Part shown: piece after piece, positions 640-63,083 of the stretch
Layout: the number at the start of each line of letters is the position of its first letter
Numbering within the stretch: the stretch's first letter is position 1
Assembly (NCBI GenBank): GCA_951406725.2
Contig: OX597814.1
Span: 99,510,001 to 99,574,000 of the forward strand
Length of the DNA stretch: 64,000 nucleotides
Direction of reading: 5' to 3'
From: Octopus vulgaris
Lineage: Eukaryota
Program-made: the position numbers and the translations under genes
Notes under the pieces: generated by a model
The model's input: the letters and a program-made list of their open reading frames with translations, nothing else
Databases searched by the model: none
Told to the model about the DNA's origin: nothing

Positions 640-2990
640 TATTTGGTCTTTAGTCATTTCGCTTCATCTGAGAAATTCTAACTACCCTTTTCTCGGCCTT
701 TTTTCTTTGCCGGGTGGACTCTAGCACGTTACCTAGACCCTCTATCATGTAACAAGAGCATGTACTTGCTTCACTAAGAGTTAAGTCAAGAGCTACTGAC
801 TTGTTGTGGGTAATATGTTGAAGGCGTTGGCAGTCCCTCTCGTAGCTGAAAAAGCCCGATTCTGGAGGCATGTGTTCGATTACATTGAGAGCAGAAAAGA
901 GGGCTCCGACGAAGTTGAGCTCGTCTAGGATTTTGCTGACTTACCTTGAGCTGCCTCCGCTTGTTATCGCGAAGTATAGTCCGCTTATCCTCAAAATGCT
1001 GCGTACTAGTTTTGACCATAATACCCCTCCAGGTAGTACGGTCTGTGGCCAGTGTTTCAAGTTCAACAGGGGAAATGTTGCAGAGCTTCAGGGATTTCTT
1101 GAGATGATCTTCATATTGCTTCTTTGGACGACAAAAGAAACAATACCCTCTGCTAACTCCACCAAAACGACAATCTTGGGTATACGGTTTTCCCGCATCC
1201 TGATAACATTCCCACCCAGTGCAGTTGACGTTCGAGTATCAATTTCGATCGACTCCGGATCTCCGTATGTGCGATCTTGTCCTTCTAGGTCTCATGAAGA
1301 ATGCACTGGAGACAGAGGATATGAAAAGATTCGAGGAGATTGACATGACGACAATAAAGCATCCAGGTTTCTGAGGTATACAGAAGCTTAGAAACCACAA
1401 CAGCACGATAAACCTCGATTTTCGTGGAGAGATTCAGATCTCGATGAAGGAAGACCCTATCCTTTAGACGTCCAAAAGCGTAGGAGGCAAGGTGGATACG
1501 ATTCTGACCCCATTACTTGAAATGATGCTACACAAATAGGTGAATTTCTCGGTGATCGTCTTGGATCGAAAGAGTCACAGGGGGTGAACCATTTTTAGCA
1601 CGTTGAAGGATCTCTATTTTCTTGGTGTTGACCTGGAGTCCAGCCCGACGATAGGCGATTCACACAACGTCTAGGTTCTGCTGAAGGCTAGCTGGTTCGT
1701 GAGCGAGAGCTTCGCAGTTATCGGCATACTGTAATTCGAAGGGAGTAGTGGACTGAGTCATTGTTCGCGATTTTAGTCTCCTTATGTTGAAGAGACTGCC
1801 ATTGTAGCGATATCGAATTGGAATGCCATCTTCGGGGTTGAGGTCGTAGCGAGATAGTAAGGTCACAGCCACAAGGAACACATTGAAAAAGACAGGGGTC
1901 AGGACACAGCCTTGTTTAACTCCGACTTGAACGTTGAAGTAGTTAGACTGATCACCACCCAATGTCACACGTGCTTGCATGCCGTCATGGAACTGACATA
2001 GCATGGCAAGAAGCTTAGGAGGACATCCATGCCTCTGCAGGACATTCCATAGTAGTGGGCGGCTAATAGTATCAAAAACCTTAGTTACGTCAATAAAGAC
2101 GAACGAGACATCACACTGTTGTTCTTGGGCACTTCTTTAATAGGAGGCGATGACGAAGACCATGTCGATAGTACTGCGGTTAGCTCTAAAACCGTATTGA
2201 GACCCTGTGAGGATTCCTTCAACGAAGTGGCCAAGAAGTCGAATGAGCAGGACGCGTGCCAAGATATTTCCTACAACATTCAGGATTGAAATACTACTGC
2301 TGTTGTTGCAGTCTGAGCAATCTCCCTTCTTCTTCAAGATGGTGATTATGTCTGCGTGTTTCCAGCGTTGAGGGATCAACACACTTTTCGAACAGTAGAG
2401 GATAGTCTGGTGAATACGCTGGACAAGAGCAGGACCACCATATTTATAGATCTCCCCCGACACACCATCTGATCTAGGTGATTTCCTGTGTTTTTTAAGT
2501 AGGAGAGAGCTGTACGAATTTCCATGAGGGGGGGGGCGTAAAGTACCCAGCTCAAGGAGATGGGGGAGCTCATCAGTTAGTGTGGTGTCTGTAGGATTTA
2601 TCTTGTTCAACAAGGAGCTGAAATGTTCTGCCCATCTCTCAGGGATCTGGGTATTTTCCTTGTTGAGAGTGTTGCCGTCTGGAGATCGTATCGGATTGAT
2701 ATGACTGGAGGATCGACCGTACATCGATTTGGTTGCAGTGAAGAACTCGTGGATCTTATTTTCATCCATAAAACGTTGAATTTCTGCAGCTTTGTTCTTC
2801 CAATTCTGGACGTGTGCGTATGACCTGCTCGAGAGGTAGGCATCATCAACCCGGTTTTTACTTCTGAGACGAGGGAGGATCTCATCAGCAGATTCATCAA
2901 ACCAGTCAGGATTACGACGTCTAGTGTGTCCTAGTTGTTCGGTTGCAGGCAGAGTCTTCTTGAAAGTTTTAGTAACTTCTCTGCTGAAGT
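640..2990 (-). mobile_element. Degenerate RTE-clade LINE (RT domain and C-terminus), frameshifted
   Basis: Minus-strand ORFs 2137-2769 (KSPRSDG, KKGDCSDCNN, SQYGFRANRSTIDMVF), 1660-2004 (GVKQGCVLTPVFFN, LQYADN) and 786-1019 (CSQCNRTHASRIGLF, an RTE-type C-terminal motif). Boundaries approximate. Confidence 0.9.
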
Positions 2991-3095
2991 AGGAACAACA
3001 TGTTCTTTGTGCATCTCTTTAACATCTTGGAGATTTTAGGTATAATTATACAAATGTCTCCATCTGTTCTAATTTAATTAAATTCTATGTCTTTG

Positions 3096-11699: not shown

Positions 11700-12410
11700 T
11701 ATTGTAGGGGTTAGTTTCAAAATGCTGGTCTGGTAGAGCCTTTAGATGTGGGTTGACGGTATATTTCGTTTAAAGCAATGTCAAAATTATTTACTAGAAC
11801 CTTCTAGAATATTCCATGTGTAGATTATTACATATTTCTCGCGTCTTCCTTCCTGTGAGTAAAAGCGTAGCTTTTCATCATCTTCCTGTAATTATCTGCT
11901 ACATTGTTGCAATCATTTTAGTGTAATAACATTGGATCGCTCTGAGCTCTGCTGTTAATGTAGCACTATATGGTGACAACAACTGGGAGCAATTGTCCAG
12001 GCGGTTGCCCATAATTGTTTTCCACAGGGTCGACATGACTTCTTGGTCTCTTGCCCTAAAGGAATTTAGTGTTCATCCTATCACTTGTCTGCACTTTGTT
12101 GTCATCTTGGTAATGTGCATATGAAATGATGCATCATTATATTGTGATTCTCTGTCTCTTAATATCTGTAATTCTGTAATTGCAATGCCTTCGGGTCCTA
12201 AATATTCAGACCTTGGTGCATTTGTGGGTTGATAGCGCAGTGATTGGAATTTTCCAGCATTAAACCGAATGGGACGTAAATGCAATAAACCCACTTGTTT
12301 ATTGTATTTACGTCCCACGGTAAGATTGTGAAATCGTTAGGATTCTTTATTGTCTGTGATAATTTTCTATCAGAAGCTATGCTGATGATACTAAATTATT
12401 ACAGGCAATA
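11700..12410 (-). mobile_element. Degenerate CR1-like LINE 3' fragment with a short 5' inversion
   Basis: Minus-strand translation FNAGKFQSLRY..NDASFHMHITKMTTKCRQ..LDNCSQL..RREKY. The plus strand at ~12376-12410 encodes an inverted SYADDTKLLQAI. Confidence 0.75.
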
Positions 12411-12724
12411 GGTTGTTTGAGTATTGAAACCATGGTACGTAGGTAATCATTTTTTATTTTGTATATTTTCATTTGTTTTGATCACTTTTACATTTTGGTG
12501 TTTTGCTGAGATTTTTCTTAAGAACACACTCTTCGTGGTAATGGCGATTTGAAGTCTATGTTTAGCATATTAAGTATCAACTTTAGTGGTCATTCCTCTT
12601 AATTTTGTATGTAACATACTTTTTAATCTTCGGATTTTAAAAAATATGCTAAGCCACTGGTTTTAATTGATTAATATCAATTTCTACCCTTATTATTTAA
12701 TTTTACATACATATGTATATATAT

Positions 12725-22486: not shown

Positions 22487-22895
22487 AACTGGCAGAAACG
22501 TTAGCACGCTGGGCGAAATGTTTAGCGGTATTCTGTCTGCCGCTACGTTCTGAGTTCAAATTCCGCCGAGGTCGACTTTACCTTTCATCCTTTCAGGGTC
22601 GATTAAATAAGTACCAGTTACGCACTGGGGTCGATATAATCGACTTAATCTGTTTGTCTGTCCTTGTTTGTCCTCTCTGTGTTTAGCCCCTTGTGGGTAG
22701 TAAAGAAATAGGTATTTCGTCTGCCGCTACGTTCTGAGTTCAAATTCCGCCGAGGTCGACTTTGCTTTTAATCCTTTCGGGATCGATAAATTAAGTACCT
22801 GTTACGCACTGGGGTCGATCTAATCGACTTAATCCGTTTGTCTGTCCTTGTTTCTCCCTTCTTTGTTTAGCCCCTCGTGGGCGATAAAGAAATAA
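22487..22895 (+). mobile_element. Head-to-tail dimer of SINE family A
   Basis: First unit has the A and B boxes. The second starts at the junction AAAGAAATA|GGTATTTCGTCT and lacks the A box. Confidence 0.9.
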
Positions 22896-25369: not shown

Positions 25370-25762
25370 AATATTCTTTTCTACTCTAGGCAGTAGGCCC
25401 GAAATTTTGGGGGAGGGAGCCAGTCGATTAGAGTGACCTCAGTATGCAACTGGTACTTAATTTATCGACCCCGAAAGGCAAAGTCGACCTCGGAAGAATT
25501 TGAACTCAGAACGTAAATACAGACGAAATACCTATTTCTTTACTACCCACAAGGGGCTAAACACAGAGAGGACAAACAAGGACAGACAAACGGATTAAGT
25601 CGATTACATCGACCCGAGTGCGTAACTGGTACTTAATTTATCGACCCCGAAAGGATGAAAGGCAAAGTCAACCTCGGCGGAATTTGAACTCAGAACGTAA
25701 CGGCAGACGAAATACGGCTACGCATTTCGCCCGGCGTGCTAACGTTTTTGCCAGCTCGCCGA
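25370..25762 (-). mobile_element. Head-to-tail dimer of SINE family A
   Basis: Same junction as 22487-22895 in reverse (GACGAAATACC|TATTTCTTT at ~25522-25541). Confidence 0.9.
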
Positions 25763-34466: not shown

Positions 34467-37341
34467 TAGTTTTATTTTTATAGCGTGCTTTCACTTCACT
34501 ACCGGGCGCAGCTCTGTGTGCCTTAGGTATGTGCTGTGATTTGTTGTGATGCTCTGATGGTTATTGTAAGGAAAGTGTTCTGCGTAGGATGTGTGCAGTG
34601 CCTAGTAGTGCAATTTTCTGTATGTTATATGTGTTTGTAAGTCCTGGTGCTTTTGATATGTATTTGTCTGAATATTTTTTTATCATGCCTAATGCACCTC
34701 CTATGATAGGAATTGTTTCTGTTTTTAGATTCCACATTCTAGTTACCTCTATTTTCAGGTCTTTGTATTTTGAGAGTTTCTCCATTTCTTTTAGAGACAC
34801 GTTGTCATCTGCCGGTATTGATACATCAATTAGAAAGCATTTTTTTCTTCATGATCTCTGACAACTATATCTATCTGTTGGCCTTAATTTTTCTATCTGT
34901 GTGTATCGGCATATCCCAGAGTATGGTTGCTTTCTCGTTTTCTGTGACCTTTTCTGGTGTGTGCGTATGCCATCTTTTTTCTGTTGTTATTCCATAATGT
35001 TGGCATAGCTTCCAGTGTATGTAGGTTCCAACTCTGTCATGTCTGTGAATATATTCCTTCTTAGCCAGGACTGGGCAGCCAGAGATAATATGATTTATTG
35101 TTTCTTGTTCATCTCCACATATTCTGCAGTTACTTGTTATATTTCTTCTCATTACATGCTTTTGGTAATTTCTGGTGGGAAAGCTTTGGTCTTGTGCTGC
35201 AATTAAAAATCCCTCTGTCTCTGCTTTGAGTCCTGAGCTTCTCAACCATTGCTGGGATTTTTCTTTCTCTATTTCTTTTGCGTTTAGTTTAATCCAGTAT
35301 TTACCATGAAGGGGATTTTCTTGCCATCGTTTTATCATGGTTCGTTGCTGTTCTATTTTTAGTTTGGATTTCATTTGTTTTATAGCTTTTGTTGTTTCTT
35401 CTTCTTCTTCTTCTTCTTCTTCTTCTTCTTCTTCTTCTTCTTCTTCTTCTTCTTCTTCTTCTTCTTCTTCTTCTTCTTCTTCTTCTTCTTCTTCTTCTTC
35501 TTCTTCTTCTTCTTCTTCTTCTTCTTCTTCTTCTTCTTCTTCTTCTTCTTCATATTTATGATTTCTTGTTTGTATTTGTCAGCTTCCTTAAATACTGAGA
35601 ACAGATTTTGTTTTGCTCGTGTTTTGCCGCTATTTGTATCAGTTTTCCTTCCTTCTGAAGTAGATATTTTTGTAGTCCTATGGTGGTTATTTTATAGTAG
35701 TTTTCCAGTTGTATAAGGCCTCTACCACCATCTATACGTTGTATATATAGTCTTTCTATGTCAGATTTTGGGTGATGCATCCTAGATCCTGTCATTATTT
35801 TTCTTGTTTTCCTATCTATTTTGGTCAGTTCATTTAGTGTCCAGTTAAGGATATTGTAGCTGTAACTTATAACTGGGACAGCTAAAGTGTTAATACCTAT
35901 TATCTTGTTTTTAGCATTAAGCTCTGTTTTTAGTATTGATCTAACTCGTCTATAATATTCTTTTTTTTATTTTCTCTTTCATTTGTGTGTGTTGTGTCTT
36001 ATCTAGTTCATGGATTCCTAAGTATTTGTAAGTTTGGCTTTGGTCTAATTCTTTTATTTCATTGGTTTTATCTAGTGTGATGTTGCTACTCTTAACTAGT
36101 TTTCCTGTTTTCAGGGTTACTTTGGCACATTTTCCTAATCCAAATTTCATATCTATTTCTTTGGTAAATCCATGAATTGTCTTTAATAGTGTTTCCAGCT
36201 GTTTGTCATTTGCAGCGTATAGTTTTAGGTCATCCATATATAAAAGGTAGCTGATCGTTTTGCCATAACATTTATATCCGCATCCAGTTCTATTTAGCAT
36301 ATCAGATAGAGGTGACAGTGCCAAGCAGAAAAGGAGTGGAGAGAGCGTGTCTCCCTGGAATATTCCTCTTCTAATGGGGATGGCTTTGGTTTTCATGAGT
36401 CCCTCTTTTGTTTGGAGCTGTAGCACTGTTTGCCATTTATTCATAGAGTGCCCTATGAATTTTATAATTGTTGGTGCTACTTTGTTAATGGCTAGTGTTT
36501 CGAGGATCCATGTGTGGGGGATGCTATCAAATGCCCTTTCTATGGCTGTCTTCAGTTATGGCTTTATTAATCATTAGTTGATCTTTACAGCCATATGACC
36601 CTTTGCGGCATCCTTTCTGCTCTTCTGGAAACAGGTTGTTTTCGTCCAGGTGCTTGTTCAACCTTTGCGATATCACTGCAGTAAAGGCCTTGAACATTGT
36701 AGGGAGACAGGTTATTGGTCTGTAGTTTTCTGGTTTTGCTGTCTCATTTGATTTAGGAATTAAGATGGTTTTCCCCTTCGTGAGCCATTCAGGCATTGTC
36801 TCTGGCTCTGCTAGTATGTTGTTAAGGTTTTCAGCCAGCTTTTTGTGTATTCCTGTTAGATATTTCAACTAGAAGCTTGGGATCTTGTCATGCCCAGGTG
36901 CCTTCCAGTTGCTTAGTCTTTGCAGTGCCTGGGTGACCTCTTCAGTTGTTATGGGGGTCCAAAGTTGCTCAGATGCTGAGTTTGTTGTTTTAATACTCCT
37001 TTTCTTTTGGTTGTTCGTTTGCCGACCATATTTCTCTCCAGAATTCTTCCACTTCTTCTGCCGTTGGTGCTGTAGTGATTTCTATTTTATTTTTGCCAAG
37101 TTTTTGGTAGAACTTTTTGGGGGTTGGAGTTGAACTTCTTGTTTTGTTCAAAGAAGCGCTTGCGTTTCTCATACCGGCGGATCCTTTGTGCTTTGGCAAG
37201 GATATCTTGCTTCAAATTTTTTTTTTCTCAGGTAAATCTTTTCCTGTGATGTTATATTTGCGGAGTATTTTTGTTTTCTTTTTGTTGCTCAGTAGCATTG
37301 ATTGTCTACTGATTTCATTAAGAATCGACAGATCTCTTCTA

Positions 37342-37502: not shown

Positions 37503-37717
37503 AGGCGGCGAGCGGACAGAAACGTTAGCACGCCGGGCTAAATGCTTAGCGGTATTTCGTCTAACGCTACGTTCGGAGTTCAAATTCCGCAGACGTCGAC
37601 TGCCTTTCATCCTTTAGGGTTCGATAAATTAAGAAACGGTCAAGTACTGGGGTCGATGTAGTGGACTATCCCTCTCCCTACAAATTCCAGGCCTAGTAGA
37701 AAGGATTATTATTATTA
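37503..37717 (+). mobile_element. SINE family A with (ATT)n tail
   Basis: GGCGGCGAGCGGACAGAAACGTTAGCACG..GAGTTCAAATTCCG..AAGGATTATTATTATTA. Confidence 0.9.
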
Positions 37718-39168
37718 CTCGGAGTCTGGTTCGGACCAGATCTCCGGGTAGATAGGAACTCGGAAGAGGCCATGACTAGGGTGACCAAGCTCACCCTGAA
37801 ATGGGCAAAAGGGAAAAGGAAGCTGTCGCTAAAATGCTGGGCGAAAGTAGCGAATGCATATATCGCCTCTGTAGTGGTACTTTGTCTTAAGAAAACTCTA
37901 ACCAGATTGGAGCGCTTACTTTTCCGATTCTTATGGAAGGGTCTGGCTCCGCTGGTCAGAAAATCCATCTGCTGTCAACACACGCACAGTGGTGGTCTTG
38001 GGATGCCAGCCTTGATGATGCGGCGCTACGTCTTGAGGTTGTCGCACCTACAGAAATATCTAAATCACTTCGATGATATGGACGACGAAGATGACGACGA
38101 CGATAACGAAAATGAGGGTGAAATTGTGTGGGCATCTTTCGTGCGACACGTCTTTCCGCAGCACATCTCGTTGACAGAGCTGTAGTCAGGGGTTATAAGG
38201 TTAGACGTTTGGCATCTAGATTGCTGCCAGGAGCTCACTGCCCAAAACCGTGAGCGGGAAAACAACCCAATAGGAGGCCAGTTGAAGGTATAAGTGATGA
38301 TGGCCTAGAACTGAATCTAGGTATCGACGAGAACAGTTTGAGTATACTCTTCCAGAGGACCTTCGGGTCGAAGATCATGGACAATTTCCAAAAGCCTTTG
38401 GCTTGACAGTGCTACAGAGGGCATTGCCCGTTCGAGACCAGCGCTTCAGGCATGGAAATGCCAACAGCCGAATCTGCTTGAGATGCTTGCAAGAAGACGA
38501 AACCGTTCTTCATGCAATAATTCAGTGTCCGTGCATTAGAGAGTTGTGGGATTGTGTGGAGCAGCTGCTGTCGCGTGTAAGGCATATTAAGCTGTCTGCC
38601 AACTGTATAGTGAAAAGTCGACACACCACCTTCCCTAAGCAGAGAAGGTAGACAAATCTTTCTCTGCTTAGTGGCTGTAGCAAAAGAGGCTCTGTAGTGG
38701 ACCCGTCTGAAAGGTTTGAAGACAAGTACATTCCTATATGGTCAAGTCATCATCAGTTTCTTCAAATATCGTTTGAAGAGGAAAGTGAGGGTAGGGAGGG
38801 AGGTGCTGCCTTCTAGTGTGTTTATCAAAAGGTGAACAATAGTGACAAGACTGGTGAGACTGAATGAATCTACTCTGAATATGCTTTTCTAAGCAAGAGG
38901 AAAGGAACTGAAAGAGGGAAAGTTTTCGCGAGGTTTACCCCGGATTACTCTTGGTGGTCTGTCTCACTATTGGTGATTCTAGTTGTTTGTTTATTTATTT
39001 ATTTATTATTTCTCTACTTTCTAATATATATCCTCTGTTACATCCTTTAATGTGGTAGTATCTCCTCGATTGATGGTAGCCCCATATGTTTTTGTATTAT
39101 TCATGTGCTGTAACTCGTCCTTTGATATTATCCACCATGTCTTGGGCTCTTGAGGCCAATAAAGAAAA
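37718..39168 (+). mobile_element. 5'-truncated Tx1-like (L1 group) LINE
   Basis: LERLLFRFLWKG..GGLGMP and the zf-RVT-like RALPVRD..CLRCLQEDETVLHAIIQC. The 3' UTR ends AATAAAGAAAA, followed by (TGA)n/(ATT)n. Confidence 0.85.
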
Positions 39169-61682: not shown

Positions 61683-61829
61683 ATATTTCGGAATGGTCAT
61701 ATTTAAACGTATATATATATATATATATATATATGTTCTTAATCATATCAAAGGGAAATGGAAATTAATTAAAAATTCCGTTTACAGTGGCCTAACGTGT
61801 AAAAGTTTTGTCCAAAGACTGTATTAGTC

Positions 61830-62113
61830 ATAAAATACAGTGTACATTTAAACACACGAGGAATCCACTCATGGAATTTAACCCAAGGTGTTCCTGCTGA
61901 TGACGATTTCACATAGAGAGTATATGTGATTTACTTGCTAAACTAAAATCAGAAACCAAATGGTCCTGGAAACTAGATGTTAAAATGTTTTTTATTTTTT
62001 TCATTTCGTTTCTGTCGAATTTTATCCCTAATTTTGTGGTTATGGAACCTAGCTGTTCTTTCTAGCGTGTTGAATCCCACGAGTGGATTTCTCATGTGGT
62101 CAAATGTACACTG

Positions 62114-62189: not shown

Positions 62190-62248
<59 letters not shown>

Positions 62249-62372
62249 TTAATAAGAGTGAGAGAATTAGATACTAATTTAATAGTATATCTATTCAACA
62301 CCAAGTGGCCCAGTGCTCCGAGAAACCTGGATTATTATAATATTTTATAATATATTATAATATTTTTACAAA

Positions 62373-62769
62373 AATAAATATAAGAGAGTGGTCACTATAT
62401 GGCTCACTCTAGCACTAGTTAATCCAAAAGGTTTCAACCACAAAAATACATGTTTCCCATGAAAGTCAGTACGATTGTTAGCTCACACGAACAGGGCAAA
62501 TAAAAAATAACAAAAATACAGATTATTTTGGGACAATTGTTTCGCTATTAATGAATTAAATGTAATTTTACTTACAAAAAAATCCACTTGTAGCTCCTCA
62601 GCCAAAACTATCTGGATGAAATCCACTCAATCACACGCCAGATTTTACCATAACGATAAATACACGTGTGGTTCAATTGATTTGGGAAACATGTATTTTT
62701 GTGGTTGAAACCTTTTGGATTAACTAGTGCTAGAGTGAGCCATATAGTGACCACTCTCTTATATTTATT
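62373..62769 (-). mobile_element. ~400-bp element with perfect 87-bp inverted repeats enclosing an intact hammerhead
   Basis: 62373-62459 is the exact reverse complement of 62683-62769. Flanks are AT-rich or (TA)n. Confidence 0.92.
62519..62614 (-). ncRNA. Intact type I hammerhead ribozyme
   Basis: CAGAUAGUUUUGG-CUGAGGA-GCUA-[loop]-UAGC-GAAAC-AAUU-GUC^-CCAAAAUAAUCUG. All core nucleotides present; helix I pairs 12 of 13. Confidence 0.88.
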
Positions 62770-63083
62770 ATATATTATATATATATATATATGAAATACC
62801 TAATGGTTTCACTTCGCTAGTCCCATAATTTAATAACATGTCTATTGTTTTGTATATCACCATTTATCGTATTTTGAATAGGTATGTATACATTAACATT
62901 ATTGTTATTTATATTAATTTATGACAATAACTATTTTTATAACTACGTATTTTTATATTATGTATTAACTTTAATGGTGCACTATATTTTTCCGCTTTGA
63001 TTATTTAATGTTTTCCAGTTTGATTATCTAATGTTTCCATTGTGTTTTCATTATGATATATATAAATTTCCTTACTCGTTCTT

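Follow-up and report, generated by a model that had tools for sequence, protein, structure and literature searches.

The window, a 64-kb stretch of Octopus vulgaris DNA, contains two arms of one repeat unit, joined head to head and set between two (TA)n tracts (Table 1). With unit positions numbered from the first base past the predicted hammerhead cut, blastn maps positions 1-293 of the unit to 62531-62240 and positions 386-536 to 62682-62532, and the inverted arm starts with position 73 at 62683. The main arm is 99.5% identical to the closest other copies, the GC content of the unit is 0.32, that is, below 50%, and the longest ATG ORF within the element has 30 aa, in agreement with the first-pass annotation, which had found no ORF. 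That annotation had described an element at 62373-62769 bounded by perfect 87-bp inverted repeats. The two repeats are indeed exact reverse complements (87/87) with no extension inward or outward; the borders have to be moved, as a further 133 bp on the left belong to the same unit, so that the left repeat is internal and not terminal, and the 397-bp 'element' of that description results from a truncation peculiar to this copy. In substance, the description of a young non-autonomous retroelement bearing a hammerhead was right.

Table 1. Features of the insertion and its surroundings (positions in the window).
Feature	Position	Strand	Basis
Whole insertion: main arm and inverted arm, flanked by (TA)n tracts	62240-62769	.	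blastn against natural monomer; sequence
Main arm (5'-truncated): unit positions 386-536 followed by 1-293, ending 3' at site B	62240-62682	-	blastn
133-bp PLE-type 'tail' separating end sites A and B, on one arm only	62240-62372	-	
Left '87-bp repeat': internal copy of unit positions 73-159 within main arm	62373-62459	-	
Canonical type I hammerhead motif (predicted)	62519-62614	-	descriptor, fold, variation and covariation
Inverted arm (unit positions 73-159) with its 3' end at site A and a gapless join to 5' end of main arm	62683-62769	+	
Left flank: (TA)n target tract	62190-62239	.	sequence
Right flank: AT stutter and (TA)n target tract	62770-62792	.	
Older separate insertion of sister family D, same two-arm anatomy, decayed hammerhead (core 61897)	61735-62112	+	

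Around this insertion, a member of what we call family A, lie relatives and repeats of other kinds. The adjoining family D copy is about 90% identical to other copies, and two substitutions weaken its helices I and III. A diverged sister copy (family E) at 12346-12705 has a hammerhead motif on the plus strand (core 12382), can be aligned with families A and B over the stretch that runs from ribozyme to end B, and abuts what appears by eye to be a LINE reverse transcriptase fragment on the minus strand. Broken fragments of LINE-like reverse transcriptases were recognized by eye in translations of 786-3018, 34871-36555 and 37700-38185, and an abundant short repeat, probably a SINE, has partly tandem copies of opposite orientation at 22489-22894 and 25474-25754. 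A repeat search of the whole window is dominated by microsatellites.

The hammerhead motif and its conservation

The minus strand carries, as had been noted, a motif that reads as a type I hammerhead: helix I, the core CUGAGGA (62601-62595), stem II GCUA/UAGC (62594-62591 paired with 62547-62544), and GAAAC-AAUU-GUC, with a predicted cut at 62532/62531. Stem III has 2 bp and a palindromic AAUU loop, and loop II, left out of the earlier description, is a structured loop of 43 nt. The helices are of canonical size (a long helix I, a 4-bp helix II), not of the minimal form that had been assumed. Of the computational checks proposed at that stage, a strict hammerhead descriptor returns the minus-strand motif as its sole match in the 64-kb window, and Rfam finds no hammerhead in 62300-62800 even with E values up to 10 allowed; a scan of the whole window with Rfam gave only microsatellite-driven matches among the 150 of 305 listed.

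For the 96-nt motif the folding energy is -24.4 kcal/mol (z -3.8), a stability reached by 0/200 shuffles. The catalytic arrangement lies 2.7 kcal/mol above the minimum free energy fold, which is thus not the catalytic one. Two palindromic helix III segments are calculated to pair with each other at -6.4 kcal/mol, a modelled pairing in keeping with the cleavage as dimers reported for ribozymes of this kind (PMC4209133).

In the fetched loci of families A and B there are 198 instances of the motif with a conserved core. The hammerhead consensus leaves core position N7 free, and in family A it is N7 that deviates, in 34/62 loci and with all four bases represented, against 0-2 loci for each of the other six positions of that strand. 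In 31 hammerheads of families A and B, 92% of the cells pair and 5/11 pairs change on both sides, with far lower values in slid controls, although these cells are not independent events because they rest largely on one split between the two families; family B also has a frequent U-U mismatch at the base of stem II (18/31 unpaired). Among the copies, N7 is free, the other core positions are rarely changed and the helices covary against the older sister family. Selection on the predicted fold is suggested by the core kept across families A, B, D and E, by the free N7 and by the compensatory changes in helices I and II. The 5' ends of insertions are not significantly enriched at the cut site (6/100 in an 18-nt bin, P 0.12), and there is therefore no genomic trace of cleavage. 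The minus strands of two fetched loci (L109:633 and L126:3019) show a further hammerhead family, whose stem II has 7 bp and whose loop II is long; it is unaligned with any of the families A, B, D and E. For comparison, 235 hammerhead_1 loci have been listed in the giant squid (PMC6962438), and 8/9 predicted Xenopus retrozymes failed to cleave in vitro (bioRxiv 10.64898/2026.07.22.740005).

A young, dispersed tandem repeat

In the genome searched (2.8 Gb, 227 contigs), many copies match the first 310 bases at 99-100% and then diverge in their continuation. The unit recurs in tandem with a length of 533-536 bp, in arrays of 1 to about 14 units, and full units differ by 0.25% within arrays and by 3.1% between them. 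A 29-mer across the predicted cut site has 2,111 exact genome matches and a second pattern 2,355, each with 0 for its reversed control. All 30 bins of a monomer are covered by contigs from three runs whose RNA origin is a guess and from one large run, a result to be read as presence and not as transcription. At the level of sequence, the family has the traits of a non-LTR retrozyme: a short, dispersed, non-coding tandem unit of GC content below 50%, each with a predicted type I hammerhead.

Two older sister families were recovered, family B with a unit of 484 bp (L149; 1,801 first-look candidates) and family D with one of 475 bp (L178; 1,587 first-look candidates). One family A array unit (L049:5836-6277) has many small deletions beside intact neighbours, possibly an artefact of assembly or polishing. 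Three loci on one contig (L033, L248 and L250, contig C1) have a common flank and a common inversion junction, probably through segmental duplication or a carried flank, and L248/L250 may be one event with L033.

Two fixed 3' ends used in pairs

The 3' ends of insertions fall at two unit positions only, site A (about 159-161) and site B (293), about 134 nt apart, and both run into (TA)n; 5' ends are scattered. Read by eye, the B end is mostly precise and the A end often has a short AT stutter. End B followed by TA has 808 exact genome matches, and read-through at B has 1,565. Among 66 non-overlapping loci (L003, L015, L025 and L030 having been left out for overlap with others), 33 are single-armed (19 with end A, 14 with end B), 31 are two-armed head to head and 2 are complex. 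The two arms of a two-armed insertion end at A and B in 30/31 cases, and at A and another position in the remaining one. In an independent set of 60 new loci picked solely by their end B, the inverted partner ends at A in 40, at B in 0 and elsewhere in 1, is cut off in 2, and is missing in 17 (three assignments were made by eye: L218 and L258 to A, L252 to none). Neither set holds an A+A or a B+B pair, among 31 two-armed loci and 41 resolvable partners respectively, and under independent choice of ends such pairing has a P of about 1e-9 in the first set and 4e-10 in the independent one. The same A+B pairing recurs in sister family B (9/9 counted pairs), in family D (4/4) and in an autonomous Penelope-like element (PLE) of the same genome (2/2).

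Arm junctions are mostly blunt or have an overlap of 0-6 nt, with some longer fillers, and the inversion may extend from tens of bases to kilobases or be absent. The first-pass annotation had argued that a repeat length varying among genomic copies would indicate PLE-type inversion and a fixed one true terminal inverted repeats; the length varies, which decides for the former. Flanking matches of 11-26 bp occur near both ends in 4/66 loci (L014, L018, L020 and L054), and pure (TA)n hides such duplications elsewhere, the window copy included.

The two arms of an insertion also agree in their internal sequence. At subfamily-diagnostic columns they match in 422/429 comparisons, random loci disagreeing at 42%, and it follows that both arms of one insertion share a template. 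Six locus-private variants are, moreover, common to all covering units across an inversion. Since the arms often cross many predicted cut sites, and since 5' ends are not enriched at the cut, the template is likely to be an uncut multimer or circle. On the choice between a circle and a linear multimer, two loci (L066 and L024, the latter complex) have variants confined to particular units that stand in matching register in the two arms (4 columns), and a third (L038) contradicts this at 1 column.

Resident Penelope-like elements

The genome has at least two young PLE families with reverse transcriptase (RT) and GIY-YIG matches that end in (TA)n (150 of 6,136 GIY-YIG candidates were scored). 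The first, represented by L111 and L112 (G000:C4:116249500-116256000 and C5:1040000-1046500), is a young two-ORF family with an upstream frame of 479 aa and an ORF2 of 781 aa. About 20 intact 781-aa frames are found among the 148 matches listed, and the copies are mostly 97-99% identical. Its ORF2 carries a C-x4-C-x2-C linker of the type described for Neptune and Nematis elements (PMC8557442), its two 3' ends lie 36 nt apart, and it is this family that supplies the two autonomous cases of A+B pairing; by eye, its 3' repeat contains a hammerhead-like motif with a U3-A8 core. The second (L196-L207) is very young and C-rich, with copies 99-100% identical, 1,810 first-look candidates and ends in (TA)n.

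The first-pass annotation had raised the question of whether longer copies join a Penelope RT/GIY-YIG ORF. In the loci read there is no junction of unit and ORF; autonomous PLE families do coexist with the unit in the genome. The 50 GIY-YIG loci show no similarity to the monomer beyond short AT-rich matches, nor do 12 loci of the C-rich family save for a known neighbouring copy; the 60 B-selected loci contain no PLE ORF, and of the 4 earlier loci with ORF fragments nearby, the 3 that were read show these separate from the unit. As the unit lacks an ORF and none is attached to it in the loci read, the family does not qualify as an autonomous PLE.

Discussion

The insertion at 62240-62769 is very probably a copy, truncated and inverted at its 5' end, of an ORF-less tandem repeat whose 535-bp units each contain a hammerhead motif; it is likely a non-LTR retrozyme, copied in trans into a (TA)n microsatellite by the RT and GIY-YIG nuclease of a PLE. 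Truncation at the 5' end, an inverted 5' copy, a one-sided tail and a microsatellite target are all present, and with the PLE hallmarks set out in PMC8557442 as reference, the features of ends, inversion and tail are marks of PLE insertion, the 133 bp that had been missed being the PLE 'tail'. It is from this signature on the insertions that we infer a PLE as the carrier.

How might such a structure arise? A PLE protein would bind the retrozyme RNA near a 3' structure and open the (TA)n tract, whereupon reverse transcription would be primed from both target ends on one retrozyme RNA, once at site B and once at site A. Both cDNAs would stop at random and then be joined, usually through an overlap of 0-6 nt; the overlap of the arms would appear as a 'perfect inverted repeat', and the stretch by which B exceeds A as the one-sided tail. 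If other animals are a guide, the hammerhead would cut to release monomers and circles, and it would probably do so as a dimer paired through palindromic helix III. It is tempting to go further and propose that PLE-type integration is intrinsically asymmetric, one complex making two starts on a single RNA, with one target end priming at B and the other at A, on a (TA)n target that is itself symmetric, and that retrozyme arrays are written ready-made in one event, possibly rolling round a circular RNA, by a PLE protein without detectable sequence similarity to them; we regard this larger proposal as evenly balanced between right and wrong. Both strands of (TA)n have an identical sequence, so any asymmetry would need to lie in the complex or in the order in which the steps occur.

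Other origins have to be weighed against this one. The perfect inverted repeat, the lack of an ORF and the TA-rich flanks would suit a DNA MITE with 87-bp terminal inverted repeats in which the hammerhead-like sequence arose by chance, a reading with next to no probability given that the left repeat is internal, that inversion breakpoints differ between loci, that 33/66 loci of the first set have no inversion and that tandem arrays are common. Fixed-length terminal inverted repeats being absent and arm lengths variable, we reject MITE identity. Twin priming also yields outward-facing 3' ends. An L1-style event of this kind, driven by a LINE other than a PLE, might therefore be considered, as both 3' ends face outward here and LINE-like fragments occur in the window; there is, however, no poly(A) and no fixed LINE-type tail, the arms overlap in sequence instead of covering adjacent parts of the RNA, and two alternative 3' ends with a one-sided tail have been described as specific to PLEs (PMC8557442; PMC11167929), all of which makes mobilization by a LINE very improbable.

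Two further readings stay closer to our own. The copies could be 3' remnants (solo pseudo-LTRs) of an unsampled autonomous PLE, later made tandem locally by unequal crossover, and not a separately mobile RNA. Hammerhead, end A, tail and end B follow one another as they do at the 3' end of the two-ORF autonomous family, and such a route has been proposed for vertebrate retrozymes (10.64898/2026.07.22.740005), yet the 126 family-A loci contain no fixed entry from non-unit sequence, inversions have multi-unit arrays on either side, their A and B ends intact, and crossover in a direct array would not give the six private variants found across an inversion. We consider the remnant reading improbable; it alone is disfavoured, and an ancestral origin of the unit from a pseudo-LTR remains likely. 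The other reading keeps the element and its carrier and takes the hammerhead to be inactive or irrelevant, so that spread would depend solely on a promoter and an RT-recruiting 3' structure. Templates that span cut sites with no pile-up of 5' ends there, a minimum free energy fold other than the active one, the stem II mismatch of family B and the finding that hammerhead mutants did not impair insertion in vitro (PMC11167929) all speak for it; against it stand the core conserved in four families, the free N7 and the compensatory changes in helices I and II, and on balance we hold it to be unlikely.

The class of element is already known, and the family observed here is, at the level of sequence, a non-LTR retrozyme that works like a PLE insertion. 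Our literature searches returned no account of this family, of the long tail or of strict A+B pairing, in a coverage that excludes older subscription papers on PLE structure, where a prior description is possible; the accessible portion of the main text of an octopus repeat paper (PMC13282606) makes no mention of hammerhead, ribozyme or retrozyme. The borrowing of PLE enzymes by retrozymes has so far been proposed mostly from co-occurrence and sequence similarity, and here is a family that bears the full PLE integration signature on its own insertions. Near-absolute A+B pairing, in three retrozyme families and, with only two cases, in an autonomous PLE, turns a loose 'tail at one end' into a rule that can be tested in vitro, and the young, near-identical copies are a practical substrate and test bed for how PLE reverse transcription starts. 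They also carry a warning, in that short two-armed copies resemble MITEs.

Comparison with known systems

Animal non-LTR retrozymes (PMC7229834; 10.64898/2026.07.22.740005) are, as here, ORF-less tandem units of low GC content with one canonical type I hammerhead each, present in thousands of copies beside autonomous PLEs; their duplications of more than 4 bp may have a counterpart in the flanking matches visible in 4/66 octopus loci. At 535 bp, the unit exceeds the 150-450 bp given in PMC7229834 and falls inside the 51-972 bp of 10.64898/2026.07.22.740005. The octopus family differs from these in its 43-nt loop II and in that no matching pseudo-LTR was found among 62 PLE loci; conversely, the 5' inversions, the tail, the paired fixed ends and the targeting of (TA)n seen here are absent from the retrozyme descriptions in the accessible parts of the same two sources. 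Cleavage and circles have been demonstrated for coral, mussel and axolotl retrozymes (PMC7229834) and are a prediction for the octopus family. With the hammerheads of PLE terminal repeats, among which paired motifs 100-700 bp apart on opposite strands have also been noted (PMC4209133), the motif shares its type I architecture and a short palindromic helix III suited to dimer cleavage, whereas its long helix I and 4-bp helix II set it apart from the minimal form described there.

Insertions of endonuclease-bearing PLEs of the Neptune/Naiad type (PMC8557442) have a tail of 30-40 nt, compared with about 134 nt here; in contrast to those elements, the octopus unit has no ORF, and the one-sidedness of its tail is close to absolute in our counts. 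A biochemical parallel is the Anolis Poseidon PLE in vitro (PMC11167929), in which two internal RT start sites likewise delimit the tail, the target is AT-rich, both target strands are extended and uncut RNA is the main template. The start sites are much further apart in the octopus family than in Poseidon, and where Poseidon shows no difference between strands in the choice of start site, the two arms of one octopus insertion nearly always use different ones.
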